Source: a virus (taxonomy: Duplodnaviria; Caudoviricetes). From it: a DNA stretch of 43,140 bases. Within the stretch, counting starts at the first letter, position 1. The number at the start of each line of letters is the position of its first letter. The stretch covers positions 1 to 43,140 of IMG/VR virus record IMGVR_UViG_3300037419_001006, one strand, 5' to 3'. The notes beneath the pieces were generated by a model, which saw only the letters and a program-made list of their open reading frames with translations, did not search any database and was not told where the DNA came from. The position numbers and the translations under genes are program-made. This document shows, piece after piece, positions 10,176 to 33,632 of this stretch.

Positions 10176-10262
10176 TTCGATGGAAGGCCTCTAAAATCAG
10201 GGCCTTCACGACCACGACAGCGACGATTTCCACCCCTCATTCCGTAGTCTCCCGGAGGCCCG

Positions 10263-17962: not shown

Positions 17963-17967
17963 ACGAT

Positions 17968-17997
17968 GAAGCCGAGGGGCTGCCACCCCTCGGCTTC
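17968..17997 (+). terminator. Perfect 12-bp hairpin, probable terminator
   Basis: GAAGCCGAGGGG-CTGCCA-CCCCTCGGCTTC just after the stop; weak U tract. Confidence 0.55.
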
Positions 17998-19154: not shown

Positions 19155-19201
19155 TTTGGGAAATCGAGTCAGATCAAAGGGTTAGCAAGTACCTGATTCG
19201 A

Positions 19202-19231
19202 TTGACTTATTGGCCCACCTGTGCTATATAC
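19202..19231 (+). promoter_or_regulatory. Sigma70-type promoter pointing at the structured RNA
   Basis: TTGACT-17 bp-TATATA (GCTATATAC resembles alphaproteobacterial -10 elements). Confidence 0.6.
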
Positions 19232-19237
19232 GTCGTA

Positions 19238-19289
19238 CACCGGGGATGCGTCGGAATCGCATCGCGGGCTGGCAACGGCCCACCCGGTG
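19238..19289 (+). ncRNA. Three-way-junction RNA convergent with DUF3800 gene (candidate DUF3800-type RNA motif)
   Basis: CACCGGG/CCCGGTG closing stem, GATGCG/CGCATC hairpin, GGGCTG-GCAA-CGGCCC hairpin. Confidence 0.6.
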
Positions 19290-19297
19290 GCTTCCCC

Positions 19298-20062: not shown

Positions 20063-20373
20063 GCCGGCATTATGGCAGACTGATTCGGCGCTCGTTAAGT
20101 CCGACAGGATTCAGAGGGGAATCCGGACGAAATTTCAGAGTAGGACACTACCGAACCACTCGCACCGAGGATCGAGTTCTTCTCCCGCCGCAATCGGAAG
20201 TCGAAGGAGCTGGTCTATTACTTCCGGATCAGAGCATCCAACGGCAAGATCGTCGTGCCGAGCCAGGGCTATTCGCGGAAAATCGACTGCATCCAGACCG
20301 CCTCGCACCTTCGCGGGACGCTGATCGAAGCCCGCATGTTCGACATGGACAAGGGCGGGGAGGAGATAGTCTG

Positions 20374-20817
20374 ATGTTCGGCCTCTCTACCGTCAAGCTC
20401 ATCGGCCTCGCCATTGCCGCAGCCGCCATCCTCTCGTTCGTGCTGCTCGCCTTCCACTGGAAGCACCAGGCTGCTGACCGCAAGGAGCAACTGGCGACCA
20501 TCTGCGCCGCGACCCGCACCGTCGCCGCTAATCCCAAGCTCGCGTGCAAGGCCGTTCCGCAGCAGATCACGCTGCTCGGTCAGGCGATCACCGACCTCAA
20601 GGCGGGCATCGCCAAGCAGAACGCAGCCATCGACGCGATGGGCAAGGAATCGGCACGGCAACAGGCGGACGCAGCAAAAGCCGCGCAGGACGCGCGTGAG
20701 CGAGCGCGAGGAGCGGAGGCTACTGCGGAGCGGCTAAGGGCGTCGGCACACTCTACCCAGCGGCTTCCTGGGGGCGTTTGCGAGCCGAGCAAGGCTGTGC
20801 AGGAGACGTGGCGATGA
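20374..20817 (+). CDS. Inner-membrane spanin (Rz-like)
   Basis: N-terminal TM plus Ala/Gln coiled coil; lysis region. Confidence 0.7.
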   Translation: MFGLSTVKLIGLAIAAAAILSFVLLAFHWKHQAADRKEQLATICAATRTVAANPKLACKAVPQQITLLGQAITDLKAGIAKQNAAIDAMGKESARQQADAAKAAQDARERARGAEATAERLRASAHSTQRLPGGVCEPSKAVQETWR

Positions 20818-21245
20818 TTGGAACGCAGCGCAAAGGGGGCCTTCAGCTCGGACGAGGCAGCCCCATCCCCTACAGCGATATTAGCGCCACCGTTGCTAGC
20901 CGCCCACACCGCAGAAGCCTGACGGTTCGGTGCGTCCGATTGGGAGCGCTACGTTCCGCGGTCCTTCTACCACTCGCGCTCACCGCTTGCCAGACCCCGC
21001 CCGTCCGCGATAGGGTGGTAACGGTCAGCGTGCCGATCGCTACCCATCCCGTGAAGCCAGCAGACGTTCCGCAACTGCCCGCTCCACTTCCGCCGCGGCC
21101 CAAGGATGCGCGGCCGGCACTGGACCTGGCGCTGGCCCAGGTATGCAGCTTCGTCGCTTATGCGGTTAAGGCTGATGCGCTGCTCCGGGTGAGCGCTGGA
21201 CTGCCGCCGATGGCGCCGCCCAAGTATCCGGAATGCGAACGCTAA
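20814..21245 (+). CDS. Outer-membrane spanin lipoprotein (Rz1-like); true start may be TTG 20940
   Basis: Lipobox LALTAC followed by Pro-rich segment. Confidence 0.65.
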   Translation: MIGTQRKGGLQLGRGSPIPYSDISATVASRPHRRSLTVRCVRLGALRSAVLLPLALTACQTPPVRDRVVTVSVPIATHPVKPADVPQLPAPLPPRPKDARPALDLALAQVCSFVAYAVKADALLRVSAGLPPMAPPKYPECER

Positions 21246-21517
21246 ACCGGCGTCCGCCTGTTGGTGCTGACTGATGCACCGAGGTTGAGCGGTTTCGGCG
21301 GATCGGGGAGCGGTTGCCAGTGGGTCGGCAGGCATTCGCTGTCGCAGCCTTGAACATAATTGGGAGCGGTTGGGGAGAACCACATGGTCGCCCGTTCGTC
21401 CCACGCGATCACGTCCAGTTGTTCGCCCTCTCCACCATCGGCCCATTTCCAAGGAATGTAGGCGAGGATGCGCGTCCCATCCTTCGGAGCAGTTTCAATC
21501 GGTTGCCAATCGTCCAT
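21242..21517 (-). CDS. DUF551-like phage protein
   Basis: WQPIETAPKDGTRIL...PTHWQPLPDPP. Confidence 0.75.
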   Translation of the reverse strand: MDDWQPIETAPKDGTRILAYIPWKWADGGEGEQLDVIAWDERATMWFSPTAPNYVQGCDSECLPTHWQPLPDPPKPLNLGASVSTNRRTPV

Positions 21518-21520
21518 TAG

Positions 21521-21778
21521 CTAATCCCTCTGTGTCTCTGATTGATGTGCGGGGGTGAGCGGCTTGCCGGTAGTTTTGGGCGGGCTTGTGTCCGCGAAGC
21601 GCTCGGCGGCGCGCAACACAACGCCTTCCGGCATCATCTCGATTGCCCGCACCAAGGCCAGCGCCTCTCGGATCGGTTCAAGGGCTAGGATGCGGTCGGC
21701 TATCAGATCGGCCTGCGTTCCTGTCCCGACGACCTTCAAGACTTCTTTGGCGATTTGGTGATGTAGTAACTCATTCAT
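21521..21778 (-). CDS. Hypothetical protein
   Basis: RBS GAGGG before ATG 21778. Confidence 0.55.
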   Translation of the reverse strand: MNELLHHQIAKEVLKVVGTGTQADLIADRILALEPIREALALVRAIEMMPEGVVLRAAERFADTSPPKTTGKPLTPAHQSETQRD

Positions 21779-21815
21779 TATGTGTTCCCTCTGTGTCCAT
21801 ATAGGTACAAGGTAT

Positions 21816-21886
21816 GGGCGATGCCTTCGGCCCGCGCTACTCGCGAGTGGAGCCGCAAGCGTCTCCGTCCTTCGGACGAGTATCGC
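21816..21886 (-). repeat. Structured early-operon element, copy G
   Basis: GCGAT-ACTC..GGAGAC/GGCTCC..GAGT-AGCGC..CGCCC on the minus strand. Confidence 0.8.
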
Positions 21887-22058
21887 TATCGCATTCAGTC
21901 CAATAGCCAAGAAACAAGCCCGATAGAAACATCGTCGTAAGCCCGAAGAGGTTGGCGATGCGAAGCCAAGTTGGAGCTCCCCACCCCGCCGTTCCAGCGA
22001 TTGCGCCTACAACGAGCAATCCAAACCCGATTTTTTCGCCTGTGTTGAATCGCCGCAT
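21837..22058 (-). CDS. Small 2-TM membrane protein flanked by element copies A and G
   Basis: RBS AAGGAG; stop lies within copy G. Confidence 0.6.
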   Translation of the reverse strand: MRRFNTGEKIGFGLLVVGAIAGTAGWGAPTWLRIANLFGLTTMFLSGLFLGYWTECDSDTRPKDGDACGSTRE

Positions 22059-22077
22059 AGGTCCTATCTCCTTTACG

Positions 22078-22137
22078 CCGGATAGTCACCGAATGGCCGA
22101 GACCGGAACGGGCTCGGTGCGAAGCATGACTAGCCGG
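22078..22137 (+). repeat. Structured early-operon element, copy A (truncated)
   Basis: CCGGAT-AGTCA..CCGAGAC/GGCTCGG..TGACT-AGCCGG; lacks terminal CGCCC. Confidence 0.7.
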
Positions 22138-22205
22138 ATTACGTCCATATTACAGATTGATACTAGTCCTTCGAGAGGGTGTCGGTTCATCATCATTACA
22201 GGAGG

Positions 22206-22586
22206 TCATTGCTGCACCTTGGGCGGCTCGATCGCTGACGCGGGTGGAAGCGTCTCATCATCATAGAGGCCCATTTCCTCATCGAGTCGCGTCATGCGCG
22301 CAAGCGGGTGCTCCGTAGTGGCTTGGCAGGCGGCCAGCATTGCGCGAGCCACCTCCTCTCCGGCATAGACGCTGGCAATCACCGCCACGCCCCTGTCTTC
22401 CGGATATGGCCTGACGTTGATGTCCCACGAGGTGACGTGGCCGAGCCGGTCAACGCAGGGACTGACCTCCCAATCCCACGCTCGCTCCAATGCGTTAGGG
22501 ACACTCGCCCGCAGGGCCGAGACTTCTTCAGGCTCGGCTTGCGAGTGGCCCGACCCCGAAGGGGGAACGCCCGTATTCTGTACCAT
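22206..22586 (-). CDS. Hypothetical protein; N-terminus encoded by element copy B
   Basis: RBS GAGGAGG. Confidence 0.6.
   Translation of the reverse strand: MVQNTGVPPSGSGHSQAEPEEVSALRASVPNALERAWDWEVSPCVDRLGHVTSWDINVRPYPEDRGVAVIASVYAGEEVARAMLAACQATTEHPLARMTRLDEEMGLYDDETLPPASAIEPPKVQQ
22498..22572 (+). repeat. Structured early-operon element, copy B
   Basis: GGGAC-ACTCG..CCGAGAC/GGCTCGG..CGAGT-GGCCC..CGCCC. Confidence 0.8.
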
Positions 22587-22871
22587 CTATCCCTCCTCAA
22601 CCCCAGCGTTCAGGGCGGCGCGCGTTACGCTTTCGGCCCAATCCTCATTGATGGCCTCGACGCTGTTTCGCGGCATACCATCGGTGTAGCCGTCGTAATA
22701 AGCCGCCTCCAGCATAGGTCTGACGACTTCGAGGGCGGATGCTGCGTTCTTCAGCCAAACAGGGCCCTCGTCCGCCCACACTTGGTCGAAGTCGCGGTTC
22801 GTGCCCTGAAGTTCGTCCACGAGCATCGCCCGCGCCATCCGCTCTACTAGTTCGGTATTGGTGGTGGTCAT
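22587..22871 (-). CDS. Hypothetical protein
   Basis: MTTTNTELVERMARAM...; coupled start. Confidence 0.6.
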   Translation of the reverse strand: MTTTNTELVERMARAMLVDELQGTNRDFDQVWADEGPVWLKNAASALEVVRPMLEAAYYDGYTDGMPRNSVEAINEDWAESVTRAALNAGVEEG

Positions 22872-23047
22872 GCTGCTTTCGGCTCGGTTGTCCAACTGGT
22901 TTCGTGATAGACCTCGACGGCGTAGGCCTTCCCGCACTCTCCGCATTCGAGGCGCGTGGTGCTTTCGTCATAGTAAAACGGCTCGTCGGGCGTTTCCTCG
23001 TGACCGCAGTACGGACATTTTGGCCCGCTAGTGCTGTAGAGTCGCAT
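22868..23047 (-). CDS. Small zinc-ribbon protein
   Basis: CPYC...CGEC; RBS GGAGG. Confidence 0.65.
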   Translation of the reverse strand: MRLYSTSGPKCPYCGHEETPDEPFYYDESTTRLECGECGKAYAVEVYHETSWTTEPKAA

Positions 23048-23061
23048 ACCTAATCCTCCTG

Positions 23062-23793
23062 TCATGCTGCCTCCCAAAGCTGGGCAAGCCTCAATCTCTC
23101 GCACGCAATGGCGAAATAGCTTTCATCCCGCTCGATCCCGATGAACTTCCGTCCCAACTGGACCGCAGCGACTCCGGTGGTTCCCGAGCCCATCGCATTG
23201 TCGAGGATCGTGTCTCCGGGATTGCTGTAGGTCGCGATCAGGTAGCGCATCAGCCGCACAGGCTTCTGTGTCGGGTGGACCACCTCCCCCTCGGCTTCCG
23301 CGGTCGGGAAGTAGATGATGTCGGTCGGGTATCTCGCACCCTCACTGGCCACCCTGACTGGCTCGAAATCTCCGTAGCTTCCGGTTTGTTGGGCTTTCCT
23401 CAAGCCTTTGTCGTAGGCGGTTCCAGATCCCATTTGCGGGTTGTAGGTGCCACCCTGGAACACGCAGATGTCCTCGTGCTTGCGGAGAGGCTGCTTCTTC
23501 GCGTTGAGGAAGTTGGTGGGTTTCGATTTCTCCCACACCAGCTTGTATTTGAACGCCCGCTCGTTCGAGAGGATGAGCTTGGCGGTGAATATGCCTTGAG
23601 ACGTGAGGACGACCGGCCCGCGGCACCGCCGGCGGTACTCTGTCCACAATCGATCGAGCGGAATCGCGCTGTCCCACTTGTTCTGGGTGGTGCCATAGGG
23701 GAGGTCACAGATAACCGCGTCCACCTTGCCCAGAGTTGGCATGATGGTGAGGCAGTCGCCTCGCAGGAGGGTGGCTTGGCCGATGGTGGTCAC
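23062..23793 (-). CDS. Orphan DNA methyltransferase (N6-A/N4-C, beta class)
   Basis: DLPY catalytic motif, HPTQKP, LDNAMGSGTTG SAM-binding motif. Confidence 0.9.
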   Translation of the reverse strand: MTTIGQATLLRGDCLTIMPTLGKVDAVICDLPYGTTQNKWDSAIPLDRLWTEYRRRCRGPVVLTSQGIFTAKLILSNERAFKYKLVWEKSKPTNFLNAKKQPLRKHEDICVFQGGTYNPQMGSGTAYDKGLRKAQQTGSYGDFEPVRVASEGARYPTDIIYFPTAEAEGEVVHPTQKPVRLMRYLIATYSNPGDTILDNAMGSGTTGVAAVQLGRKFIGIERDESYFAIACERLRLAQLWEAA

Positions 23794-23802
23794 GGCGCCA
23801 CC

Positions 23803-24040
23803 GCGGTAAGAGTGCGGTAACCGTTACCGCGAATCCGCATCTGTTCCCGCGCCGTTCGCGCAAGAGAACATCGAAAAACGGCGGATTTCAGCAGAAAAGC
23901 GCTAGTGGCCGTGCCTTGACATCGCAGGGGTCGCAAGTTCAATCCTTGCCACGCCCACCATTTCATCCCATTGGTATCAGCCATTTTTCGCCGCCTCGAT
24001 CCCGACAACCCTACCAGCGTGCGCGGTAAAGTCGCGGTAA
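23803..24040. other. attP: attP: core is the 3' part of tRNA-Val(GAC) at 23916-23960, with arm-type GCGGTAA repeats
   Basis: TTGACAT anticodon loop, GCAAG-TTCAATC-CTTGC T-arm and CCA end; GCGGTAA at 23803, 23814, 23824 (inverted), 24023, 24034; next to integrase. Confidence 0.85.
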
Positions 24041-25167
24041 AACGCGCCCGGGCACAGGCTTTCGATCTGGTCGATAATCATCTGCGTGGCAGCCAAAGCG
24101 ACCCCCAAATGAGCGGGGTCGGGCAGGGCGTAGATGTCGCTGGTCGAGGGCTTTCTGTGGCCCAGCATCGTCTCGCCCTGGATCCAGTCGCGCTCCCCGA
24201 TCAACGGGCGGGCATGATGGGACACTGACCGGCGAATGAGCTTCATCCCCGAATCGCCATGGCCCGGCAGGCCCAACGCGACCTCCATCCGCCGCCACGT
24301 AGATTTGCTGACCTCCTCGCGAACGATCGGGGCGTTGATGTCGAGGCTATCCAGCCACAGGCCGACGACCTCGGGCACCGGGACCAGCGCGCGGCGCTTG
24401 CGGGTCTGTCTCCGGCCTACCGGGTTGAGGTTGAAGGCTCGGGCCTGGCTGTTCCACTGGCCCCGTCTCGGGTCGGTTGAGGCGTCCAGAACCGCATCCG
24501 GTCTCGCCCATGTCGCCACGCTCAACCGCAGGAAGGTGAGCAGATTGGCCCGCCGCTTGCTTTTCAGCGCATAGCGGAACATCGCCGCCAGTTGAGGGAT
24601 GCTCGCGCGGAAGGATGGGGAGCGGGTGACTTCCGGCAGGGGGATCACCTTGAAGGCTGGTATCTGCTTGGCCCACCGCATCGCGGCCGCAAGCTGGAGG
24701 ACGCTGTTCTCGACGGTGGCCGGCGAGCGCTGGCGCTTGGAGCCGCGGATCGTCTGCTTGCCGAGCCATGTCCGGAACTTCCCGATCCAGCGTTCATCGA
24801 TCGCATCGCAGCGGATGTCCTTGTCTTTGAGCGTCCCGAGATAGCGGATCACATGGGCGAGGCGGTGCCGGATCGCATCCGAGCTCGCCGCCCGATCGCC
24901 GTGAGCGATCTGGTAATCAGCGATGACGGAGGCGACCAACGGGCTTACCCGGCTGACCGGCGGGACGTATTCGCCGCCCGTCGCCCTGAGATATTCGCGG
25001 TCGAGGGCGAGCTTGCCAGCCTCAAGGTCCGTTGTGCCCGCGCTAAGGCTTCGCTCCCTTCGCTTTCCGGAGTCGTACCAGACGATTTCGTGGTTCCGCC
25101 CTTGCCTTGGGTAGAGGGCGTAGTCTCCCCGCTGATAGAGCGGGTCCGGGCGACGTGTTCGCGGCAT
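23977..25167 (-). CDS. int: Tyrosine integrase
   Basis: TWARPDAV (Arg), LIRRS, LGH...SDIYA (catalytic Tyr); adjacent attP. Confidence 0.85.
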   Translation of the reverse strand: MPRTRRPDPLYQRGDYALYPRQGRNHEIVWYDSGKRRERSLSAGTTDLEAGKLALDREYLRATGGEYVPPVSRVSPLVASVIADYQIAHGDRAASSDAIRHRLAHVIRYLGTLKDKDIRCDAIDERWIGKFRTWLGKQTIRGSKRQRSPATVENSVLQLAAAMRWAKQIPAFKVIPLPEVTRSPSFRASIPQLAAMFRYALKSKRRANLLTFLRLSVATWARPDAVLDASTDPRRGQWNSQARAFNLNPVGRRQTRKRRALVPVPEVVGLWLDSLDINAPIVREEVSKSTWRRMEVALGLPGHGDSGMKLIRRSVSHHARPLIGERDWIQGETMLGHRKPSTSDIYALPDPAHLGVALAATQMIIDQIESLCPGAFYRDFTAHAGRVVGIEAAKNG

Positions 25168-25319
25168 TGGCGCTCCAGATATTCGCGGGTGGCGGCTTGC
25201 AGGGTGCCATAAGCACCGCTTGCGACCAATAGGGCAAGGTCGTCATAAGACAGGTGAAGTCCTCGCTGGATGTCCAGCTTGCGGTCCAGGCGCCGCATCA
25301 GGTCGGGAAGGGCGGTCAT
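24945..25319 (-). CDS. Putative excisionase-position protein overlapping the int 5' end
   Basis: Coupled ATG 25319; overlaps int by about 220 nt in another frame. Confidence 0.45.
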   Translation of the reverse strand: MTALPDLMRRLDRKLDIQRGLHLSYDDLALLVASGAYGTLQAATREYLERQCREHVARTRSISGETTPSTQGKGGTTKSSGTTPESEGSEALARAQRTLRLASSPSTANISGRRAANTSRRSAG

Positions 25320-25525
25320 CGGCGCTCGAACCTCCACCACACGTAATCCCATAAGCGGCGTGGCCACGACCACTCTGTATTGAGCGCCAGCCAACGGATC
25401 GATCCGCCAACCGCAACCCCGATCCGGAACTGAACGCGCGAGGGATTGAAGCGGGAACCGGCGAGACGCGAAGCGGCTCGATCCCGAAGGGACGAAAGCC
25501 CGGTGCGAAGCACGCGCCCAATCAC
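25316..25525 (-). CDS. Hypothetical protein; N-terminus encoded by element copy C
   Basis: GTGA overlap with upstream stop; ATGA overlap downstream. Confidence 0.45.
   Translation of the reverse strand: MIGRVLRTGLSSLRDRAASRLAGSRFNPSRVQFRIGVAVGGSIRWLALNTEWSWPRRLWDYVWWRFERR
25442..25519 (+). repeat. Structured early-operon element, copy C
   Basis: GGGAT..CGAGAC/GGCTCG..AGCCC..CGCCC. Confidence 0.8.
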
Positions 25526-25616
25526 CGCCACCGCCACATTGGAGGCAGACCGCAGCCGATGCACACGATGCTGACCAGCAGGCAGCCAATCGCGCCGATG
25601 AGATGATCGAGGAGCT

Positions 25617-25913
25617 TCATGGGGTGGGCTTTGCGCGGATACTGTCCGCGTGGACGGCGTAGCTGTCGAAGAACGCCCATTCGCCGCTGTTGAGCGGGCC
25701 GACGAACAGGATTGCAGGGCGCGGCGTCCAATAGGGCCAGCCGTCATACATGCAGATTTTGATGATCTGCCGGTTGTATTCGCTGAACGTGAAATCGTCC
25801 GGACGCTGCTCGGCCTCGCGCCAGATCGGCGGCATATCCTTGGCGATGGGGTGGGACCAATCGACCGGCCCACAGTCCTCGCCGACCCGAACAGTGTGCG
25901 TTTCGGTCCTCAT
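25617..25913 (-). CDS. Hypothetical protein
   Basis: RBS GGAGGAGG; 98 aa. Confidence 0.65.
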   Translation of the reverse strand: MRTETHTVRVGEDCGPVDWSHPIAKDMPPIWREAEQRPDDFTFSEYNRQIIKICMYDGWPYWTPRPAILFVGPLNSGEWAFFDSYAVHADSIRAKPTP

Positions 25914-26470
25914 CCCCTCCTCCGATCACTCTGATGGTCAGGGTTGTCGGGATTGGGCGATGCCTGTCGGCCCGCGCCCTCGTGAACGGAGCCTAAAGTC
26001 TCCGCCCTACGGGCTTCGGTCGCTATCGCGTCGCCGGAAACCCAAAACCCGCACGAAGGTCGCGCCTGTAGCGCGTGATCTGCGTAGCTTAGGATGAGGT
26101 CGTATGGCGTGCCTTCGCAGGCCAACGCCACCCGTTTGATCGACTGCAGCGCCGTGAGCGTGATTTCCAGCGCGTCGGACGCGTGGCGCGGCGCAATGTC
26201 TAAGCGGCTGTCGTCAGGGCCGTATTCTGCCGACCAGTACGGCGGCTCGCGCAGTCCTTTGACGAGTTTCGCATACCAAGGCGGCATGATTTCTCGCGCT
26301 GCACACGGGCCTTCGTGACCAGCCTCGCGCGAACACCACCAACCTTCCGGCGGCACATCGCACGCGTTAGGGATCGAAGCCGGATGGCCAAGACCGCGAA
26401 GACGGGCTTGGTCCGTAGGACGAGAGCCCGACGGCGAAGCCGGAACGCCCGTATCTGGTCGGTCAGCCAT
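25910..26470 (-). CDS. Hypothetical protein with both termini encoded by element copies D and H
   Basis: ATG 26470 with GGAG; core CDVPPEGWWCSREAGHEGPC. Confidence 0.6.
   Translation of the reverse strand: MADRPDTGVPASPSGSRPTDQARLRGLGHPASIPNACDVPPEGWWCSREAGHEGPCAAREIMPPWYAKLVKGLREPPYWSAEYGPDDSRLDIAPRHASDALEITLTALQSIKRVALACEGTPYDLILSYADHALQARPSCGFWVSGDAIATEARRAETLGSVHEGAGRQASPNPDNPDHQSDRRRG
25955..26023 (-). repeat. Structured early-operon element, copy H
   Basis: GCGAC..CGGAGAC/GGCTCCG..GGCGC..CGCCC on the minus strand. Confidence 0.8.
26370..26450 (+). repeat. Structured early-operon element, copy D
   Basis: GGGAT..CCAAGAC/GGCTTGG..AGCCC..CGCCC. Confidence 0.8.
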
Positions 26471-26475
26471 GTCGA

Positions 26476-27324
26476 TCACTCCCTTGCGCCGAGAGCGGCG
26501 CGGCCCCGGATATGGCTTTGGCCGAGACTGCTCGCGAACGTATCGACGTTGGCATCCCACCCCTCGACAAGAGCCACATTGTCCAGCTTCGCCAAGATCG
26601 CCTCTTCGTCAGCAGGACCGCTCTCATCCACATGGGCGTCCGCGAACCCGTTGCGGTAGCCGGTCGCGTAAATCTCACGCGCGGTTTCGAGTAGCCCATC
26701 ATCTCTGCTGGAGATGCGTTCGGCGATGCGGTCCAAGCGGTCAGCGGTTGACGAACCGCCAATCTCGCGACGAATGCGAGCGGCGCGTGCGCGCAACCAC
26801 TCGACCAACTCCGCATCCTCGTCAGGTGCCGCATAGAAGTCAGCCGGATCGACGCGCTTACCGTCCTTCATGATGCCGATGCCAAGCTCGCGGGCGTCGC
26901 GTTCGACAGCAGCCTCCTCGTCAGCCCCTACTCTAGTGGTGGAGGAGAGGGCGGCGGCAAGCTCACGGATCGCCGCACCCCACAGATTGCGCCCATTGTC
27001 GCCAGTGGCGACGCCCTCGTTGGTCGCCAGTTCGACAACGCGCCTTGCCGCCTCCGTTACCTGACCTTCTGACCGGGTGGAGAGGGCGGCGCGGGCTTTT
27101 GACAGCACCCATTCGTCCACAGAGACGCGGTGCGTATGCTCGTCCATCACCGCATTTTCGGTGAACGCCCGCAGCGCCTCCGTCATACCTTCTGGATTGG
27201 GGAGGGATGAGCGCATTGCGGTGTACACGCGCGCGATTGTGGCGTTCGTTAGTCGCTTGCCGGTTGTCCGCGCTAATTGCGTGCGAGCCGCAGCGATCAT
27301 CTCGGGTGTCGGCTCTCTGGTCAT
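26476..27324 (-). CDS. Mosaic hypothetical early protein
   Basis: MTREPTPEMIAAAR start, coupled to upstream stop. Confidence 0.6.
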   Translation of the reverse strand: MTREPTPEMIAAARTQLARTTGKRLTNATIARVYTAMRSSLPNPEGMTEALRAFTENAVMDEHTHRVSVDEWVLSKARAALSTRSEGQVTEAARRVVELATNEGVATGDNGRNLWGAAIRELAAALSSTTRVGADEEAAVERDARELGIGIMKDGKRVDPADFYAAPDEDAELVEWLRARAARIRREIGGSSTADRLDRIAERISSRDDGLLETAREIYATGYRNGFADAHVDESGPADEEAILAKLDNVALVEGWDANVDTFASSLGQSHIRGRAALGARE

Positions 27325-27767
27325 GGTTTCCGATCCTCGATTGGGATACCCTGTGCGGGCGTCTGCCCTTCGGGCACCGCGCCACTCATGAACGGAGCCT
27401 GTTTCACGTCTCCGCCCTTCGGGTGAGTGTCGCATGACGCAAGGTCTTCGGCTCTCCAGCTAAACCATGTGGTTGTGGTCGGCGTCTGGACAGCGAAACT
27501 CTCTTGCCCCAGCGCCTTTCTAAGCTTCACGCCAAGTTCGATTGCCTTGGCCTCGATCTGTGCCGGCTCGGCAGGAAACCGAGGATAGTTGATGAGGCCG
27601 ACGACGACTCCAGGCTCCTCCCCACCCGTGTAGATGTAGGCGGTGGACCTGACCGTCACGCAAAGACCGACCTCATCACAATGCTCGCGACACGTCTCCT
27701 TGGCGGCGCGTAAGCCGCCGGCGATGAAGATGCTGACCGGATAGCTGGGGGCGAACTCGGTTCTCAT
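27321..27767 (-). CDS. Hypothetical protein; C-terminus encoded by element copy I
   Basis: GLCVTV...YIYTGGEEPGVVVGLINYPRFP core. Confidence 0.7.
   Translation of the reverse strand: MRTEFAPSYPVSIFIAGGLRAAKETCREHCDEVGLCVTVRSTAYIYTGGEEPGVVVGLINYPRFPAEPAQIEAKAIELGVKLRKALGQESFAVQTPTTTTWFSWRAEDLASCDTHPKGGDVKQAPFMSGAVPEGQTPAQGIPIEDRKP
27357..27433 (-). repeat. Structured early-operon element, copy I
   Basis: GCGAC-ACTCA..CGGAGAC/GGCTCCG..TGAGT-GGCGC..CGCCC on the minus strand. Confidence 0.8.
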
Positions 27768-28543
27768 GCCGCCAACGCCTTCTGCGCCGCGCAGATGAAA
27801 TCGCAGTCAGGAACTATGGGTTTGGTTGTCGGCTGGTCGAGCGGGATTTCGTCAATGAAGCCGCGAATGTTCTTGTAGCGTCCATCGGGGAGCCTCTCGC
27901 GCCGTAGGATGACGAGCCGCACACCTAGCTCGCGGGACAGTCTGGCGGTTTCGGCGAACCGGTCAGGAAACCACAGACGAAACAGCGCCCAATAGTCCGG
28001 AGAGGTTGACTTGACGCAGCCCCGTTGCAGGCAGTTGGCGTTAGGGAAACCCATCCCGTAAGTGCGCGGCAAGGCAATTCCGGCACCCTCAACCCAAGCC
28101 ATGCAATTAGCCTTCGTCAGTCCGCGCTCAATCAGCGGCGTGACGATTTGAGACAGGGGCGAGAAATCGTCTTTCAGGCGCTCGGCGCGTGCCTTGTCTT
28201 TTGGGTCAGCGGTGTAGCCGAAGACGTGAATGTCGCCGGGCAGCTCATAGTTGAGGCGCGGGATGAACTTCATCTCCCGAGAACACGGCGCGCCCTTGAT
28301 GCCCGACATGTAGCGGACACTCTGCCAAACATCGAAAACGTCTTCGTATTTCTCGGACTTTATGACTTCGACCTTGCAGCCGAACCACTCTTCGCATCCG
28401 GCGCGGAACCGTAGATTGTCCTCATCTTCCGCTCCCGTGTCGCAAAGCACGACTGGTCCGGCGCTCACGCCAAACTCGTCAATGTCGAGCTTGGTGGCCA
28501 GCGCGCTCGCGGTGCCGTCGCTGAACCAGCGGATGCGTCTCAC
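27764..28543 (-). CDS. PAPS-reductase-like (adenine nucleotide alpha-hydrolase) phage protein
   Basis: WFSDGTASA PP-loop variant, EDEDNLRF, GFPNANC..GCVK, terminal CDFIC. Confidence 0.7.
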   Translation of the reverse strand: MRRIRWFSDGTASALATKLDIDEFGVSAGPVVLCDTGAEDEDNLRFRAGCEEWFGCKVEVIKSEKYEDVFDVWQSVRYMSGIKGAPCSREMKFIPRLNYELPGDIHVFGYTADPKDKARAERLKDDFSPLSQIVTPLIERGLTKANCMAWVEGAGIALPRTYGMGFPNANCLQRGCVKSTSPDYWALFRLWFPDRFAETARLSRELGVRLVILRRERLPDGRYKNIRGFIDEIPLDQPTTKPIVPDCDFICAAQKALAA

Positions 28544-28706
28544 ACCGCCACCTCACAATCACACCTAAGCCTTGACCACTCTGGCTGGGTACGGCGACGA
28601 ATGGCTGCTGCACTTAATCTGGCATGGTCGAGATTGAGCCTCAGCAGTACCGATCCATGCGGACCCACGATGCGCCTCTCGAACGGGTTGTGGATGAGTT
28701 CGTCCA

Positions 28707-29099
28707 TTATGCTGCCTGCTCCATTGGATCTGTCCAGCGAACACCATGCTTCGCCCCGTAGGCGTAGATCAGTTCGATCAGCGCCGAGAACTGGTCCTTG
28801 GTCAGCTCGGCCGAACTCAGGCCCACCGGGAACGCGCCCTCTCCCTCCAGCACTGGCAGGAACCGCAATTCGGTGCCGAGCGCGTTGAGAAAGCGCAGTC
28901 GGATGTCCTTCTCGCTGAACGTCTCCATCCCCGGCACCTGGTGCTGGATGTCGCGGATCATGGGATGCAGCTTGTCGTTCTGATCCTCGGTGCGCGTGGG
29001 CTTGCCGAGCCGCATGACTTCGCCATCTTCGGCTTGGTCGATCAGCCGCTTGGCGAACTCGCGCTGGCGCTGGTTGGCGAGGAACACGACGCGCTTCAC
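28707..29099 (-). CDS. ninB: NinB-family recombination protein
   Basis: PTRTEDQNDKLHPMIRDI...SSAELTKDQFSALIELIYAYGAKHGVRW. Confidence 0.75.
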   Translation of the reverse strand: MKRVVFLANQRQREFAKRLIDQAEDGEVMRLGKPTRTEDQNDKLHPMIRDIQHQVPGMETFSEKDIRLRFLNALGTELRFLPVLEGEGAFPVGLSSAELTKDQFSALIELIYAYGAKHGVRWTDPMEQAA

Positions 29100-29419
29100 G
29101 CCGCCCGCCATTGCTCGGCCAACGCCATCGCTTCCGCGTGAAGGTCGTAGCCGTATTGCCGATAGAAGCCCTGGTGGCCGAGACCTTCGACGCTGGCGCT
29201 GTTGCCGACGCCGATCCGATGGTGTCCGGGGCATAGTGGCGTGACCAGCCAATCGTCCTTCAGGACTTGGCCCGGCCGATCTGCATAACCTCGAACGTGG
29301 TGCACTTCGGCGGGACCGCCGCAGACGAGACAACCATGCTCGGCGACCCACGAATGGAACCGCTCAAGCTCGACCGGCTTGTAACGCGAGCGCGTCTTCA
29401 AGGCGGCGCGACGCATCAC
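29096..29419 (-). CDS. DUF968/Ref-like HNH-type Zn protein
   Basis: GCLVCG..AEVHH...PLCPGHH. Confidence 0.65.
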   Translation of the reverse strand: MMRRAALKTRSRYKPVELERFHSWVAEHGCLVCGGPAEVHHVRGYADRPGQVLKDDWLVTPLCPGHHRIGVGNSASVEGLGHQGFYRQYGYDLHAEAMALAEQWRAA

Positions 29420-29601
29420 AGTCGCTCCAGCTCCTCGTCGTCGCAGTCGCTGTATCCGACACGGAAGTTGCGAAGCGCGCCCTCAAAGCGATAGTCGAGC
29501 GCCCTCTGGAGATCGTCGTCGGTCATGTGGCCGAACACGCCCTCCGCCAGCTTCGCCATCGCGGCCTTGCGGCTCACATTCAGGGTAGCGAAGGCGCTCA
29601 T
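29416..29601 (-). CDS. Hypothetical protein
   Basis: Coupled at both ends. Confidence 0.5.
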   Translation of the reverse strand: MSAFATLNVSRKAAMAKLAEGVFGHMTDDDLQRALDYRFEGALRNFRVGYSDCDDEELERL

Positions 29602-29837
29602 CAGAACGGCGTTTCGGAACCGTCGGCATAGGCCGGCTGCGTCTGGCGCTGCCCGCCCTGCTTCGGGTCGGCCTTCTTCACGATCACCTTGCACCCATCC
29701 GGGCCGGGGATCGGAAGCGCCTCGAAAAAGCAGGTGAAGCCGTCGCCGTTGCGGTTGGGGAACATCACCCCGATCTTCGTGAAATAGCTGCGCCCGTCCT
29801 TTTCGCGGGCGGTCAGCAGGTCGTAACGGTCAGACAT
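29601..29837 (-). CDS. Small SSB-like protein
   Basis: FTKIGVMFPN core with acidic ...ETPF tail; next to ERF. Confidence 0.55.
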   Translation of the reverse strand: MSDRYDLLTAREKDGRSYFTKIGVMFPNRNGDGFTCFFEALPIPGPDGCKVIVKKADPKQGGQRQTQPAYADGSETPF

Positions 29838-30598
29838 TATGCATTCTCCCTGTCGCGGACGCCTGCCTCGCGTTCCAAGTCGGCGCGGCGCTGTTTGATG
29901 CGGATTTCGAGCGGCACGAACTCTGCCGGCAGGTTCTCGCCGGTTGACCACCACGAAGGCATGTCTCGCGCCAGTTGCTTGCAGAACTCGCGGTAATCGT
30001 CGGTCTCCGACCAGGCGATAAACTCGTCGAGGTCGCCGATCCCTTCGAGCGTCCGCACGAACTCGCGCGCCGCCGTCATAAGCTGCGTCGGGCAGGTGTA
30101 GGGCCCATCGAACCTGACGCGCTTGCTGGGTGGCGTCTCACCCGCTGTAGGGCGGCTCGTGGTCTCCGTGCTCTTGACCGCCGCGTTGCCGTCGTCATCC
30201 TCGGTCGGCACCCCGAATGCGGTCTGGAGGCCGTAGCGCTTGCAATAGGTGAGCGCCGAGCCGAAGCCTTGGGGATCCCGCTTGTTGGCGGGCATGTAGA
30301 GGATTCCCAGGCTAAGCATCTCGCCGTTGCGGTGGTGAACGAACGTCTCCACGCTCACCCCGTCATCCGCCGGATGAGGGCGTTGGGTGAAGAACAGCCC
30401 GTTGTTGATGAGCGCCGGCTTCACCGCCTCGATTACGGACGTGAGATCCGCATATTTCGAGCGGAAGTGCGGGTTGGTGCTGTCCTTGGTCGCCGCCTCG
30501 ATCTCGGCGAAGGCGCGGGCCATTGCCGTGTGAAGCGTGTCGTCGGGGAGCTCGTCGATAACGTCCCCGACAGTTTTGAGTTTGGCGTTGGTGGCCAT
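29837..30598 (-). CDS. erf: ERF-family single-strand annealing protein
   Basis: NPHFRSKYADL...QGFGSALTYCKRYGL...EDDDGN. Confidence 0.9.
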   Translation of the reverse strand: MATNAKLKTVGDVIDELPDDTLHTAMARAFAEIEAATKDSTNPHFRSKYADLTSVIEAVKPALINNGLFFTQRPHPADDGVSVETFVHHRNGEMLSLGILYMPANKRDPQGFGSALTYCKRYGLQTAFGVPTEDDDGNAAVKSTETTSRPTAGETPPSKRVRFDGPYTCPTQLMTAAREFVRTLEGIGDLDEFIAWSETDDYREFCKQLARDMPSWWSTGENLPAEFVPLEIRIKQRRADLEREAGVRDRENA

Positions 30599-30810
30599 TA
30601 TGCGGCCCTCCGTTTGATGAACCGGACCATCGCGAGCGCCAGATCGCGAAGCATGAAGCCCACGCCCATTGCGATGCTCACAGGCCAGAGAGCGGCGCAC
30701 AGCAGGATGGTCGTGGCGTGGATGTAATCGCCATCCTTGACGTTGCAGGTCGCACCGAAAAGAATGGCGAGGATCGCGGCTCCGGCGACCCACGTGTGGA
30801 CGAACGTCAT
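30598..30810 (-). CDS. Small 2-TM protein
   Basis: Hydrophobic; coupled. Confidence 0.5.
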   Translation of the reverse strand: MTFVHTWVAGAAILAILFGATCNVKDGDYIHATTILLCAALWPVSIAMGVGFMLRDLALAMVRFIKRRAA

Positions 30811-31010
30811 GTGTTGCTCGGGGAGCCGTTGCCGACCCCACGCTCCCTTGGTTCTTGCGAAATGCGATGAGCGGCTTTGCTTGAGACCGAAGGGCTCAAC
30901 CCCGCAGGGGCGCCAGCGCGGTCCTCGCGCAGCGAGGATTCGCCCTTCTCGATCATCCCAACAAGCACATCACATAAGTCGTGCGCTCGGATTGCGTCGG
31001 TGTATTTCAT
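30807..31010 (-). CDS. Hypothetical protein containing element copy E
   Basis: Coupled at both ends. Confidence 0.4.
   Translation of the reverse strand: MKYTDAIRAHDLCDVLVGMIEKGESSLREDRAGAPAGLSPSVSSKAAHRISQEPRERGVGNGSPSNT
30864..30945 (+). repeat. Structured early-operon element, copy E
   Basis: GCGAT..TTGAGAC/GGCTCAA..AGCGC..CGCCC. Confidence 0.75.
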
Positions 31011-31300
31011 GCTGCTCTCCGAGGCTTCTGAAGCTCAATCGTGAACCGCAACTCGCTCTCGATCCGATGCCGCAGTTCAATCTCCGCAACCCGTGCTTCA
31101 TGGGCTGCGATTGCTGCTTTCTTCGCATCGATTACGTCGGCGAGTTTCGTCAGCTTGTACGCAGCCTGGACCGCATCCTCGCGCTGCCTCTGTGCTTCGG
31201 CGAGCTCGGCTTTCTTCTGATCAGCCTTGCCGAACAGGGCCTTCATCATGTCGAAGTCGGCTCGCGTGGCGATGGATGCGGGGACGGTGTAGAGGGTCAT
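31007..31300 (-). CDS. Coiled-coil hypothetical protein
   Basis: 97 aa helical; coupled. Confidence 0.55.
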   Translation of the reverse strand: MTLYTVPASIATRADFDMMKALFGKADQKKAELAEAQRQREDAVQAAYKLTKLADVIDAKKAAIAAHEARVAEIELRHRIESELRFTIELQKPRRAA

Positions 31301-31479
31301 TGTCCCGCTGCCTTTGCGAGCGAGCCGCTGATCTCGGCAGCGAGCGTTTCGGCGGCGCCGCGACTGATGCGGAACACCATCGGCTCACCGTCTTTCGGAT
31401 TGAGCCATAGCCGCAGATAATCGCGGCTCTCTTCGTCCGGTGTGCAGATCACATCGGCGGTGTTCGGGCGCCCGCTCAC
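31297..31479 (-). CDS. Hypothetical protein
   Basis: GTGA-coupled start. Confidence 0.45.
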   Translation of the reverse strand: MSGRPNTADVICTPDEESRDYLRLWLNPKDGEPMVFRISRGAAETLAAEISGSLAKAAGQ

Positions 31480-31649
31480 AGCGTCACCACAATCGCAACG
31501 ACCAGCAGCGCCAGTCCGATGAACACGGCTGCGGGGTGGAAGGTGGCATCGACATGCCGAGGCTTGCCGTCCAGGCGCTCGCGAATATACGATTCCTCGC
31601 GGTTCCATGGTGTCTCGACGCAGCGATGGAGGTGGATGAAGTCGGTCAC
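31476..31649 (-). CDS. Small protein with C-terminal TM
   Basis: GTGA-coupled start. Confidence 0.45.
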   Translation of the reverse strand: MTDFIHLHRCVETPWNREESYIRERLDGKPRHVDATFHPAAVFIGLALLVVAIVVTL

Positions 31650-32101
31650 GCCACTTCTCCGCGAGCTTTCGCGATTGCGCGCTCGCAATATTCAGCGAGG
31701 TCCGCGTTGTTGTCGGCCTTGAGATTGCCTTCGCTGGTCCGCTTCTCGCGGTGGATGCGCTCGTAATCGCGAAACCGACGAGCGGCAGTTTCCAGCGCTT
31801 CCAGCAGATCAGGAGCCGCCGAGATTAGTCTGGCGTTGGCTTCGGCTTCGTCGGCACCGCAGTAATCCAGCACTTGGTCGATTGTGCGAATGACCATATT
31901 GCCGTGCTCATTCTCGCCAAGCTCGGCGGTTACGTTCCAGCGATTTGGGGCGGCGGGGCCGCAACGATTAGCAACCCAACGTCCCGGAGTATGCGCCGCG
32001 CAAGGGATGGTCGCCGGATGGTCAAGACCCGAAGGGGCTTGAGGCGAAGCCCGACCAGCCCGGTCCCGAAGGGATGCGCCCTGATCCTGTCGATCTGACA
32101 T
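31646..32101 (-). CDS. Hypothetical phage protein (HTPGRW...ANARLISAAPDLLEAL family); N-terminus from element copy F
   Basis: Common phage early-protein motif; RBS GGAG before ATG 32101. Confidence 0.65.
   Translation of the reverse strand: MSDRQDQGASLRDRAGRASPQAPSGLDHPATIPCAAHTPGRWVANRCGPAAPNRWNVTAELGENEHGNMVIRTIDQVLDYCGADEAEANARLISAAPDLLEALETAARRFRDYERIHREKRTSEGNLKADNNADLAEYCERAIAKARGEVA
32004..32081 (+). repeat. Structured early-operon element, copy F
   Basis: GGGAT-GGTCG..TCAAGAC/GGCTTGA..CGACC-AGCCC..CGCCC. Confidence 0.8.
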
Positions 32102-32130
32102 TATCATCTCCAATCCAGCTACAAGGGAGC

Positions 32131-32406
32131 TCATGCGATCACGTCTTCCGGATCGTGATATTCGCAGTCAGGATCGGTGCATCGCTCCAGAAGCGGCGCC
32201 TCATCCTCCATGCGCTCGATCGCCTCGGCCCATGCGACCGAACCGCTGATGTCCTCGACGTGGATTGACCGGCAGTCGCCGCCTATGTTGTGTGTCGGGT
32301 GGTCGAAAGTGACCATGAACCACAGCCCGATCTTGCCGCTTACGCTCTCGTCCAGAACGAAGCCGTACTTCGCTGCGACCGCGAGTGCCTGTGCTTTCGT
32401 CGCCAT
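32131..32406 (-). CDS. First gene of the leftward early operon, hypothetical
   Basis: RBS GGAG; C-terminal CTDPDCEYH. Confidence 0.55.
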   Translation of the reverse strand: MATKAQALAVAAKYGFVLDESVSGKIGLWFMVTFDHPTHNIGGDCRSIHVEDISGSVAWAEAIERMEDEAPLLERCTDPDCEYHDPEDVIA

Positions 32407-32450
32407 GCCCATCTCCCAAACAGCTACAAGGGCTGTTGGAGACGGTTTAA

Positions 32451-32497
32451 GCATATTAGAATATGCCGTGCAACCCTTTTTTCACATCAGGGTATGC
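32451..32497. promoter_or_regulatory. OL operators / PL promoter
   Basis: GCATAT-N4-ATATGC at 32451-32466, degenerate copy at 32482-32497; -35 TTGCAC on the minus strand. Confidence 0.7.
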
Positions 32498-32508
32498 TTT
32501 TTGTCGAT

Positions 32509-33177
32509 TTAGAAGGCGCGCGGTCGATAGTCCCCGATTACGATGCCTTTGACCTCGATCGACGCGACATCATCGCCGGGGCTATCCAGGTTGATGGGCA
32601 GCTGGTGTTCTGGGCGAGAGGATCGCGGCCATAGCCATTGCCGCCCTTCGTCATCGACGCGCAGCTCCTTCACCGTGGCCTCGATCTTGCCGTCGTGATG
32701 GTGACTGTAAACGATAACGTGATCTTCGTTCTGCGGCGCCCGGAAGTCGAGCACGTCCACCCAAATGACGACCGAGCCTGGCCTGTATTCCAAATCCATG
32801 CTCAGCCCGCGAACCTCTAGCGCTTTGGCTCGGCGCTTAAACCTGTCAGGCAAAGGCACATCCACCGCATACCAACGCGAGCGGTCCCATTCGACAGCCT
32901 CACGGAACGATCCCGCTTCAACCGAGCCACAGACCCAAATGGCTGTCGGCGACGGCGGTTCCGGCTGGTCCCCGCTAATGCGCCAAACCGGGACACCGGC
33001 CGTCCTGGCGAGCTTCCCGTAGGTGCGCATGTCCATCGCGTTCGAGTGACCGTTGAGGAAGTTGTAGATCGAGTTCTTATCGACGCCTGACTCTTTCGCC
33101 CAGCGGGCGATCTTGAGTTGGTTGTCGTTGATAAAGGCGCGCAGGATTTCGCGCCGTTCGTCTGCCGGCCGCTCCAT
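32509..33177 (-). CDS. cI: CI-like repressor (HTH plus S24 autopeptidase)
   Basis: ARWAKESGVDKNSIYNFLNG HTH; VRGLSM (Ser) and ATVKEL (Lys). Confidence 0.9.
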   Translation of the reverse strand: MERPADERREILRAFINDNQLKIARWAKESGVDKNSIYNFLNGHSNAMDMRTYGKLARTAGVPVWRISGDQPEPPSPTAIWVCGSVEAGSFREAVEWDRSRWYAVDVPLPDRFKRRAKALEVRGLSMDLEYRPGSVVIWVDVLDFRAPQNEDHVIVYSHHHDGKIEATVKELRVDDEGRQWLWPRSSRPEHQLPINLDSPGDDVASIEVKGIVIGDYRPRAF

Positions 33178-33201
33178 AAACCGGAAGCTACCGAAGCCGC
33201 T

Positions 33202-33248
33202 GCATATCCGGGTATGAAAATGAGGTTGCGTGGCATATCGAAATATGC
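33202..33248. promoter_or_regulatory. OR operators / PR promoter
   Basis: GCATAT-CCGG-GTATGA (33202) and GCATAT-CGAA-ATATGC (33233), same 31-bp spacing as OL. Confidence 0.7.
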
Positions 33249-33261
33249 TTTTTATAGGCGC

Positions 33262-33495
33262 ATGGTCACAGACTTCATCGAACGGGTCCGCGCCGCGCTG
33301 AGACAGCCCGGAGTGACCGCTGCTGGTCTCGCGAAACGCGCTGGCCTCCATCGCAATACTCTCTACGGCGCCGAAGCGGTGGACTGGAACCCGACTGCGG
33401 CGGTCCTGAAGGCGGTCGAGCCGCACATCGAAGCGATCGAGGCTGGCGAATGGAAAGAACCGCCGACTGAAGAGTCGCTGGACGCGGCTGCGTAG
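33262..33495 (+). CDS. cro: Cro-like HTH protein
   Basis: AAGLAKRAGLHRNTL HTH; divergent from cI. Confidence 0.7.
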   Translation: MVTDFIERVRAALRQPGVTAAGLAKRAGLHRNTLYGAEAVDWNPTAAVLKAVEPHIEAIEAGEWKEPPTEESLDAAA

Positions 33496-33632
33496 CCGTG
33501 GCGCGGTGGGGAAATAAGAAGATCGGAGGCCGAGCTGGACTCGGTGGGGTAGGAGCTAAGAGCTCGACCCCCGATCACACGAACGCACACTCGCAAAGTC
33601 TCGCACTCCTTTGCACCTGGGGAGCCTTGTAG

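Follow-up and report, generated by a model that had tools for sequence, protein, structure and literature searches.

A branched single-stranded DNA fold repeated in the early operon of a tailed phage, and present on plasmids, integrative elements and single-stranded DNA phages, as a candidate complementary-strand origin

The early operon of a tailed phage (Duplodnaviria; Caudoviricetes) contains nine copies of a folded DNA element, most of them within reading frames (Table 1). The window, that is, the whole stretch of DNA analysed, comprises the 43,140 nucleotides of IMG/VR record IMGVR_UViG_3300037419_001006. A first-pass annotation, made from the sequence alone, had listed nine dispersed structured elements; all nine are real and lie at the places and on the strands given there, eight of them reaching about 6 nt further in the 5′ direction than noted. 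That no copy occurs among the late genes holds for full copies, but a probable degenerate single-arm copy lies in a late-region gap, with the outer GAY/RGC stem and a tandem-GA module present and the inner motif absent; this copy is not certain because 0.3 matches per strand are expected by chance. A loose descriptor of two GAY/RGC motifs gave 10 matches in the 42,911-base genome, namely the nine copies and an unconvincing one at 16071, the background in 100 dinucleotide shuffles having a mean of 0.48 and a maximum of 3. The matches at 16071 and 4355 look like noise.

Table 1. Copies of the element and selected genes in the window
Feature	Position	Strand	Context
Probable degenerate single-arm copy	10177..10223	(+)	late-region intergenic gap, after late gene
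Full element	21816..21892	(-)	folded strand is coding strand; overlaps 3′ end and stop codon of ORF 21837-22058
Core-only element	22078..22137	(+)	intergenic; folded strand is template strand; without outer stem and tail hairpin
Full element	22492..22572	(+)	template strand; in frame, few codons into ORF 22206-22586(-)
Full element, tandem-GA form	25436..25519	(+)	template strand; start of ORF 25316-25525(-)
Example cassette ORF	25910..26470	(-)	variable core between a template-strand element after the shared start and a coding-strand element before the shared stop
Full element, tandem-GA form	25955..26029	(-)	coding strand; 3′ end of ORF 25910-26470(-)
Full element, tandem-GA form	26364..26450	(+)	template strand; 5′ end of ORF 25910-26470(-)
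Full element	27357..27440	(-)	coding strand; in place of natural C-terminus of phrog_4848 gene 27321-27767(-)
ERF-like ssDNA annealing protein	29837..30598	(-)	possible helper of module exchange
Full element	30857..30945	(+)	template strand; within short ORF 30807-31010(-)
Full element	31998..32081	(+)	template strand; in place of natural N-terminus of phrog_1273 (HTPGxW) gene 31646-32101(-)

The element is apparently an unnamed branched fold of single-stranded DNA, with three- and four-way branching and two invariant GAY/RGC motifs. The GAY/RGC architecture described in the first-pass annotation stands, but a further outer stem (5′ GCGNN / NNCGC 3′), which covaries and is present in eight of the nine copies, had been overlooked: its GCGNN arm is complementary to the NNCGC within the terminal CGCCC, and their pairing closes a three-way junction. 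The ends of the element are GCG and CGC(CC), and its 3′ tail consists of CC and A-rich bases. The middle stem, reported as common to the copies, is imperfect or absent in four (25436, 25955, 26364 and 30857); three of these four show a tandem G·A arrangement (N-GAA-G / GA-N′).

A script descriptor, with no match at a score of 13 or more in 1.14 Mb of shuffled loci, was used instead of a covariance model because MAFFT did not keep the nine copies in register. For the analysis of covariation, elements were chosen by their 5′ pattern only and the 3′ arms were located without using complementarity, which avoids circularity; 201 of 233 unique 5′ matches had a locatable 3′ arm. Ignoring the kinship of copies, Watson-Crick pairs were found at the five variable positions in 198/201, 193/201, 177/201, 150/155 and 146/155 elements, far above the shuffled means of 122, 159, 63, 56 and 42, and none of 2000 shuffles reached the observed values. 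Pairing is kept by compensatory changes, as had been proposed, and the first-pass annotation was right to infer selection on a folded single strand with a protein as its reader.

This single strand is DNA rather than RNA, judging from the loop types and from the occurrence of both orientations within one operon. Loops of the C-GNA-G type are typical: among 921 loops of 287 elements, 523 are GNA triloops, and 31 GNRA and 2 UUCG loops were counted on either strand. G·T accounts for 5 of 1722 inner-stem pairs, a count partly built in by a descriptor that favours Watson-Crick pairs. With DNA parameters, the folding z-score is better for the motif strand in eight of the nine window copies. As the first-pass annotation had anticipated, no Rfam family fits, there being no match at gathering score and only chance matches in an E-value search.

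How widely is this fold distributed? The loci examined contain 377 distinct full copies from several phyla, and the same fold occurs on F-like plasmids, integrative and conjugative elements (ICEs), microviruses, inoviruses and temperate Sphingomonad-type phages. The element is thus not phage-specific. Copies are seen on mobile DNA and their number is low; in the temperate Sphingomonad-type phages they are multiplied in the early operon. No element was found in most of 80 ERF-selected loci, those of low G+C, or in any of 80 relatives of phrog_1273 that were scanned. Literature searches, including literal 12-mers, retrieved no description of the motif. The neighbours found include ArdC, ParB, DUF736, relaxase, phage Int, ERF, NinB and DUF968; a shared partner enzyme was sought among the nearest and recurrent neighbours and none was found, nor was there a dedicated recombinase beside the element, and the integrase of the window has no NCBIfam match. 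Since the same fold is carried by F-like plasmids, ICEs, microviruses and inoviruses without an evident shared protein, its reader is probably not a phage protein.

Patterns run on both strands revealed one copy each in 10 microvirus and 4 inovirus genomes, and in all 14 the folded strand is the strand of the capsid, Zot-pI or Rep gene, that is, the viral sense. The outer GCG/CGC stem is often altered in these phages, whereas the core is kept. Among 79 close capsid relatives of the carrier microvirus MH572438, nothing exceeded background, one weak minus-strand match being itself at background level; the element is therefore one interchangeable solution and not a universal one. Two pequenovirus-like records, G4, alpha3, phiX174 and ColE1 lack a full element.

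The F plasmid carries two copies, 2.6 and 8 kb 3′ of nic, both on the strand of the nic sequence, each just 3′ of an Frpo-type region and outside the deposited ssiD and ssiE records. This stretch was reportedly not listed as a separate ssi in a 1991 screen of F. In ICE and plasmid loci the folded strand serves as template for ArdC in 20/20, ParB in 18/18, DUF736 in 7/7 and Toprim in 7/7 element-gene pairs, counted without merging overlapping loci, and in three loci a nic-like sequence lies 107-235 nt 5′ of the element on the same strand. A third relaxase type, with its gene on the folded strand in three of four pairs, counts against the strand rule. Leading-region genes are described as encoded on the T-strand (PMC11541004). 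Taken together, the folded strand is the transferred strand in the leading regions of F and ICEs, where the element also lies near anti-restriction genes. An sso directly after oriT has a precedent, described for ICEBs1 (PMC4595007). The Frpo/ssiD and ColIb ssi single-strand promoters likewise lie on the T-strand of the leading region, and the element directly adjoins them. It differs from them in being 80 nt long, G+C-rich, outside the ssiD record and without -35/-10 boxes; identity with Frpo was rejected on the lack of these boxes and of any overlap with a known Frpo sequence. Three candidate ‘Frpo*’ sequences (PMC11541004 Supplementary Table 2) carry parts of the element at their ends, on which the source does not comment.

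What, then, does the fold do? The element is probably a complementary-strand origin of the PAS/ssi type that the host reads, with PriA predicted as its most likely reader, and in the temperate phage family the folded base likely serves also as a joint for the exchange of gene cores. The fold would signal the host replication machinery to start complementary-strand synthesis, and PriA, rather than primase alone, would read it. The closest known system is the phiX174-type PAS (n′-pas; ColE1 ssiA/ssiB), also a folded single-stranded DNA on the strand awaiting its complement and present as a single copy in a microvirus intergenic gap. The phiX174 primosome hairpin is located in the gap after the major capsid gene (PMC9865509), and two of the element copies in single-stranded DNA phages occupy the gap directly after that gene. 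Moreover, the commonest form of the element shares with the phiX174 primosome-assembly hairpin a sub-motif (3 bp, purine·G mismatch, 1 bp, tandem GA), which matches phiX174 once, in the F-G hairpin, 0.03 matches being expected, although the motif was loosened from A·G to purine·G after phiX174 had been seen. The sub-motif has no match in G4, alpha3 or ColE1, ColE1 ssiA matching only loosely. Many copies lack the tandem-GA module, so this likeness does not account for the invariant GAY/RGC motifs. In addition, the phiX174-type PAS is one long hairpin, whereas the element is branched with two invariant GAY/RGC motifs, spans several phyla, and in temperate phages occurs in multiple copies that are translated in frame. 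The primase-only origin of G4 and alpha3 (G-site) is likewise a multi-hairpin signal in a microvirus intergenic gap. In the G4-type site the primer starts at a CTG 3′ of the hairpin, whereas the element has no CTG start site in its 3′ tail and no match in G4 or alpha3.

In a double-stranded DNA phage, the element may act on single strands arising from recombination or rolling-circle replication. The benefit of nine copies to such a phage is not explained by the origin reading, which counts against it. If the reading is correct, second-strand start on transferred plasmid and ICE strands and in most environmental single-stranded DNA phages, known for a handful of E. coli sites, would gain one recognisable fold with hundreds of covarying examples in several phyla and two copies on the model F plasmid, testable with classic ssi and PriA assays.

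The element could instead be a docking site with another role in entry, protecting or marking incoming strands as a nuclease block, in RecA/SSB handling, as a decoy for defence sensors or as a helper of a neighbouring single-stranded DNA promoter. The same strand rule would apply, as would the proximity to anti-restriction genes and the location immediately 3′ of Frpo-type regions; GNA mini-hairpins resist nucleases, and exonucleases halting at the stem base would yield exact junctions. Nevertheless, a single local structure of 80 nt in each microvirus or inovirus genome suits an origin better than a shield, and both the sub-motif and the place behind the capsid gene agree with the phiX174 origin. 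A docking site appears unlikely.

The exact junctions are seen in the temperate phages. Among 124 elements in 49 early operons, template-strand copies are N-terminal in 42 cases vs 2 C-terminal, and coding-strand copies are C-terminal in 40 vs 2 N-terminal; they are placed in frame at gene starts and gene ends, respectively, often enclosing one core, with 24 inward-facing pairs within 700 nt. In the window, the copies at 25955-26029 and 26364-26450 form such an inverted pair around a gene core of about 335 nt; the slot of this ORF holds a different core in one relative (L002) and a gene without the element in another (L081), and in relatives that of the copy at 22492..22572 holds another element or none. 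Seventeen pairs of near-identical elements in 11 groups share the 3′ flank and have 5′ flanks unrelated within 0-3 nt of GCG, the gene cores of relatives thus differing exactly at the first base of the element. Further junctions fall just after CGC, inner parts are swapped with the outer shells retained, and a homolog without the element (L355) has C|GCG at the same codon. The junctions are less clean on plasmids and ICEs because small indels vary the adjoining bases. The phage copies likely act as precise gene-swapping joints.

For the preferred reading, a complementary-strand origin that doubles as a joint, it can be envisaged that a newly made strand leaves its template by folding at the stem base and then anneals again elsewhere via the short GCG end, possibly helped by ERF, selection keeping the in-frame products. 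A module carrying the element, best on both strands, would be made double-stranded and hence kept more often. A bolder extension, put forward only tentatively, is that an inward pair makes a self-priming gene core on both strands. Any gene that arrives would be spliced at the stem base, to the exact base and without a dedicated recombinase, to a start or stop already in place. Were it true, alphaproteobacterial phages would possess an integron-like gene capture built from a host-read replication signal, and the same signal would start the second strand on F-like plasmids, ICEs and single-stranded DNA phages. Quite apart from this extension, the element offers a concrete and testable explanation of why the early regions of temperate phages are mosaic: gene bodies change at its first base, whereas the starts and stops stay the same. 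In many small phage proteins 25-30 residues are only the read-through of a DNA structure.

The junctions, which fall on the first base of GCG and directly behind CGC, the inverted pairs around gene cores, the swapping of inner parts within retained shells and the C|GCG of L355 would equally suit an attC-like structure-specific recombination site, cut at the base of the outer stem by a tyrosine recombinase or HUH nuclease. Integron attC is indeed a structure-selected, strand-specific single-stranded DNA fold that borders exchangeable genes and is joined exactly at the 5′ end of its folded strand, and the analogy drawn in the first-pass annotation survives in the exchange of neighbouring DNA exactly at the element ends. 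Membership fails: RYYYAAC/GTTRRRY boxes and an integron integrase are absent, and attC sites stand between genes in one orientation, whereas the element occurs in both, inside reading frames. No recombinase or HUH family is common to the contexts among the neighbours, the single copies of single-stranded DNA phages have no recombination partner, and it is the outer stem that is often altered there; such a site is distinctly improbable. The attC-like motif OTH-22-1, as described in PMC8632094, is distinct from the present element.

A selfish miniature insertion element entering genes in frame, like Rickettsia palindromic elements or MITEs, with a transposase in trans, is more doubtful again. 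Both flanks are unrelated in 75 near-identical pairs, and the length from GCG to CGCCC is divisible by three in 93 of 156 elements; however, no precise empty site with separate flanks was found among 311 elements examined, for which close relatives are few (there was one partial deletion), the strand rule is strict in single-stranded DNA replicons, orientation is tied to gene start or end, and 26 of 201 Sphingomonad-family genomes have only 1-3 copies of the tested subfamily pattern. REP/REPIN sequences with RAYT and Rickettsia palindromic elements are likewise dispersed folded repeats with inverted pairs and in-frame residence, but the suggested kinship with REP is not upheld, as the element has no GTAG/CGTC tag, is low in copy number on mobile DNA, and has no RAYT (Y1 transposase) among the nearest and recurrent neighbours scanned.

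A repeated RNA element, whether of the antitermination or processing type considered in the first-pass annotation or an antisense one, could account for the covarying stems, the enrichment within one operon and the NusG/UpxY-like gene of the window genome, yet it is already largely refuted and has hardly any probability left, given the DNA-type loops and z-scores described above, both orientations in one operon, a purine-mismatch strand that is the template in 71 of 124 phage copies, and a fold on the coding strand in single-stranded DNA phages vs the template strand on plasmids; unlike put/nut/C4-type elements, it has no transcript-strand fold, RNA-type loops or Rfam match. The sequencing runs listed for the element include no RNA dataset. 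Among contigs from sequencing runs, loose ends fall at 25436 and 25521, and a contig break lies exactly at 21892 in two soil runs.

The element is real. All nine copies that the first-pass annotation had claimed are present, and a loose descriptor matched the window genome 10 times, whereas 100 shuffled versions averaged 0.48 matches. Along the folded strand, that is, the strand carrying the purine-mismatch motif, the order from 5′ to 3′ is GCGNN, A, GSGAY, middle stem, side hairpin, NNRAGAC, apical hairpin, GGCTYNN, side hairpin, middle stem, RGCSC, hairpin, NNCGC and CC. The annotation had recognized the core layout but overlooked the outer GCGNN/NNCGC stem, and its statement that the late genes hold no copy must be qualified because of a probable degenerate copy there. 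It could assign no known family, and an Rfam search likewise matched none. The compensatory pairing that it described was borne out with the 3′ arms located blind: at five pairing positions Watson-Crick pairs were kept in 198/201, 193/201, 177/201, 150/155 and 146/155 copies, against shuffled means of 122, 159, 63, 56 and 42, respectively, in counts that ignore kinship of copies and drop the 32 of 233 matches without a locatable arm.

Pattern scans and the full descriptor, which had no match at a score of at least 13 in 1.14 Mb of shuffled loci, yielded 377 distinct full elements in 792 loci. Of 123 loci returned from the genome collection, 95 passed, out of an estimated 1,600 matching stretches; the carriers are mostly Alphaproteobacteria, with Acidobacteria, Nitrospira, Fibrobacter and beta/gamma groups. 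A chromosomal repeat is ruled out: the tested subfamily pattern occurs in 26 of 201 genomes of a Sphingomonad family, with one to three matches each (control match in 4 genomes). No description of the element was found in the open-access literature, and the founding work on ssi sites (Nomura, 1991; Masai and Arai, 1997) and motif catalogues beyond Rfam, with their supplements, could contain one.

Which strand folds? The invariant A·G mismatches turn into C·T on the opposite strand, and thus the fold belongs to one strand. Plasmid records matched by one window copy number 669, most of them enterobacterial; for the F-type stretch they number at least 5,000. In the F plasmid, each of two copies lies directly 3′ of an Frpo-type region (a single-strand promoter of leading regions), and the nick sequence is on the same strand as both. 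In ICE and plasmid loci, with overlapping loci counted separately, ArdC (20/20), ParB (18/18), DUF736 (7/7), Toprim (7/7) and one relaxase group (8/8) have the folded strand as their template; the gene of another relaxase type is on the folded strand in three of four. Three such loci have, on the same strand, a nick-like sequence 107-235 nt upstream of the element. The decisive contrast is provided by ssDNA phages: all 14 microvirus and inovirus copies, some from related carriers and hence fewer independent cases, are on the strand of the capsid, pI/Zot or Rep genes, which is the viral strand of these families. Leading regions thus have the element on the template strand and these phages on the coding strand; what unites the two is that the strand in question exists in single-stranded form. 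These copies retain the core and often have a changed outer stem. Among 79 capsid relatives of one carrier microvirus no element match exceeded background, which speaks against generality.

Window copies with special status and ssDNA phage loci carrying the element
Feature	Position or loci	Remark
Core-only copy	22078	
Probable degenerate copy	10177-10223	late region
Microvirus carriers (n=10)	L141, L167, L173, L492, L493, L507, L559, L573, L724, L747	one copy each
Inovirus carriers (n=4)	L704, L727, L745, L764	one copy each

The primosome of phiX174 binds to a hairpin that precedes gene G (PMC9865509; PMC5778457). This hairpin and the commonest form of the element share three pairs, a purine·G mismatch, one pair and a tandem G·A module. 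A sub-motif descriptor, loosened after inspection of phiX174, had its one phiX174 match in this hairpin (0.03 expected) and none in G4, alpha3 or ColE1; the full element is absent from these four genomes and from the ssiD and ssiE records. In two carrier microviruses the element is immediately 3′ of the major capsid gene. In position and partial anatomy it resembles a primosome-assembly site, a class to which it may belong. On balance, we favor a complementary-strand origin read by the host, with PriA as the likeliest candidate reader; a dsDNA phage would use it on single strands arising from recombination or rolling-circle replication. That it instead protects single-stranded DNA or serves as a decoy on it seems unlikely to us. 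Three candidate Frpo sequences in PMC11541004 have parts of the element at their ends, unremarked there. In its Supplementary Table 2, the slot 3′ of Frpo holds the element in Frpo* 6 and 7 and a different structured sequence in Frpo* 4 and 5, possibly another interchangeable ssDNA signal.

Placement in phage early regions is orderly. Of the elements in 49 early operons, 71 fold on the template strand: 42 come in frame right behind a start codon, 2 are at gene ends and 27 are in neither class. The other 53 fold on the coding strand, with 40 at gene ends, 2 at starts, 5 at both and 6 in no class. Pairs up to 700 nt apart are template-then-coding in 24 cases and coding-then-coding in none. In ORF 25910-26470 such a template/coding pair encloses the core, here the variable gene body, and the start and stop are common to relatives; between them, locus L002 carries a different core and L081 a gene without the element. 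A core that has a copy at each strand's 3′ end might be converted and retained more often. Among 202 elements, the shared flank is the CGCCC-side one alone in 33 pairs and the GCG-side one alone in 4, and 5 pairs share both flanks. Near-identical elements in the final set of 388 include 17 pairs (11 groups) that keep the 3′ flank with an unrelated 5′ flank beginning 0-3 nt from GCG, and 3 pairs, from genomes, that show the opposite; both flanks are kept in 17 and neither in 75. The 47 unclassed pairs are, by eye, mostly from ICEs and plasmids, with the 5′ flank kept with small indels, and include no phage pair with a break 5-30 nt upstream. Most phrog_4848 homologs stop within about 10 residues past the conserved C-terminal motif; where they end, different element subtypes start in the genes of the window and L354, and the L355 homolog has a native C|GCG at that point. 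The simplest account of the junctions would be that a nascent strand folds off at the stem base and re-anneals via GCG; the rapid compensatory changes and the swapping of interiors could follow from this too.

An attC-like site for some enzyme is less probable still; no recombinase or HUH nuclease recurs beside the element among the neighbors scanned. A MITE is quite improbable, and no precise empty site was found among 311 elements. Least credible is an RNA element: of the annotation's "ssDNA or RNA" the DNA half stands, as GNA triloops, extra-stable loops of single-stranded DNA, make up 523 of 921 hairpin loops (287 elements), mostly C-G closed, whereas GNRA loops number 31 and UUCG loops 2, counted on either strand. 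Of 1722 inner-stem pairs, 5 are G·T, a figure that the descriptor partly favors.

Some observations concern the sequence around the copies. The gene at 22206-22586, with its element and boundaries (22185-22622), recurs as a near-identical module with other flanks on contigs of four soil/rhizosphere runs; soil-run contigs have loose ends at window 21892, 25436 and 25521, possibly from other organisms. The close relatives L081, L131 and L002 have many near-identical islands of 26-50 nt in common with window 20500-33500; these are at gene boundaries, with differing gene bodies, and resemble lambdoid boundary sequences. In the C5 DNA methyltransferase gene of several phages (L204, L115, L124, L134 and relatives) the element is in frame directly 5′ of the first conserved motif; element-free homologs start normally.

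As a complete circular genome, the window comprises 42,911 bases plus an overlap of 229 bases. Its phage is temperate and P22-like (major head, portal, terminase and ejection proteins, integrase, ERF, NinB, repressor and replication initiator), with the early operon on the minus strand. Its nearest named element carriers are Sphingopyxis phage VSN-002 and phage Mvi-Yong1342-1. A NusG/UpxY/RfaH-like antiterminator gene (36112-36657) precedes the late operon, and no connection with the element was found. Directly 3′ of the integrase gene, about 23915-23961 resembles a tRNA 3′ half with a CCA end, by sequence a probable attP. The repressor gene is flanked by 49-nt inverted stretches (32449-32497 and 33202-33250; 76% complementary), probably operator/promoter regions. 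Downstream of the lysis genes lies an IS1-family-like element (16988-20152), which has perfect terminal inverted repeats of 23 nt and a target duplication of 8 bp; it encodes a transposase (18255-19154), and a DUF3800 gene is among its passenger ORFs.
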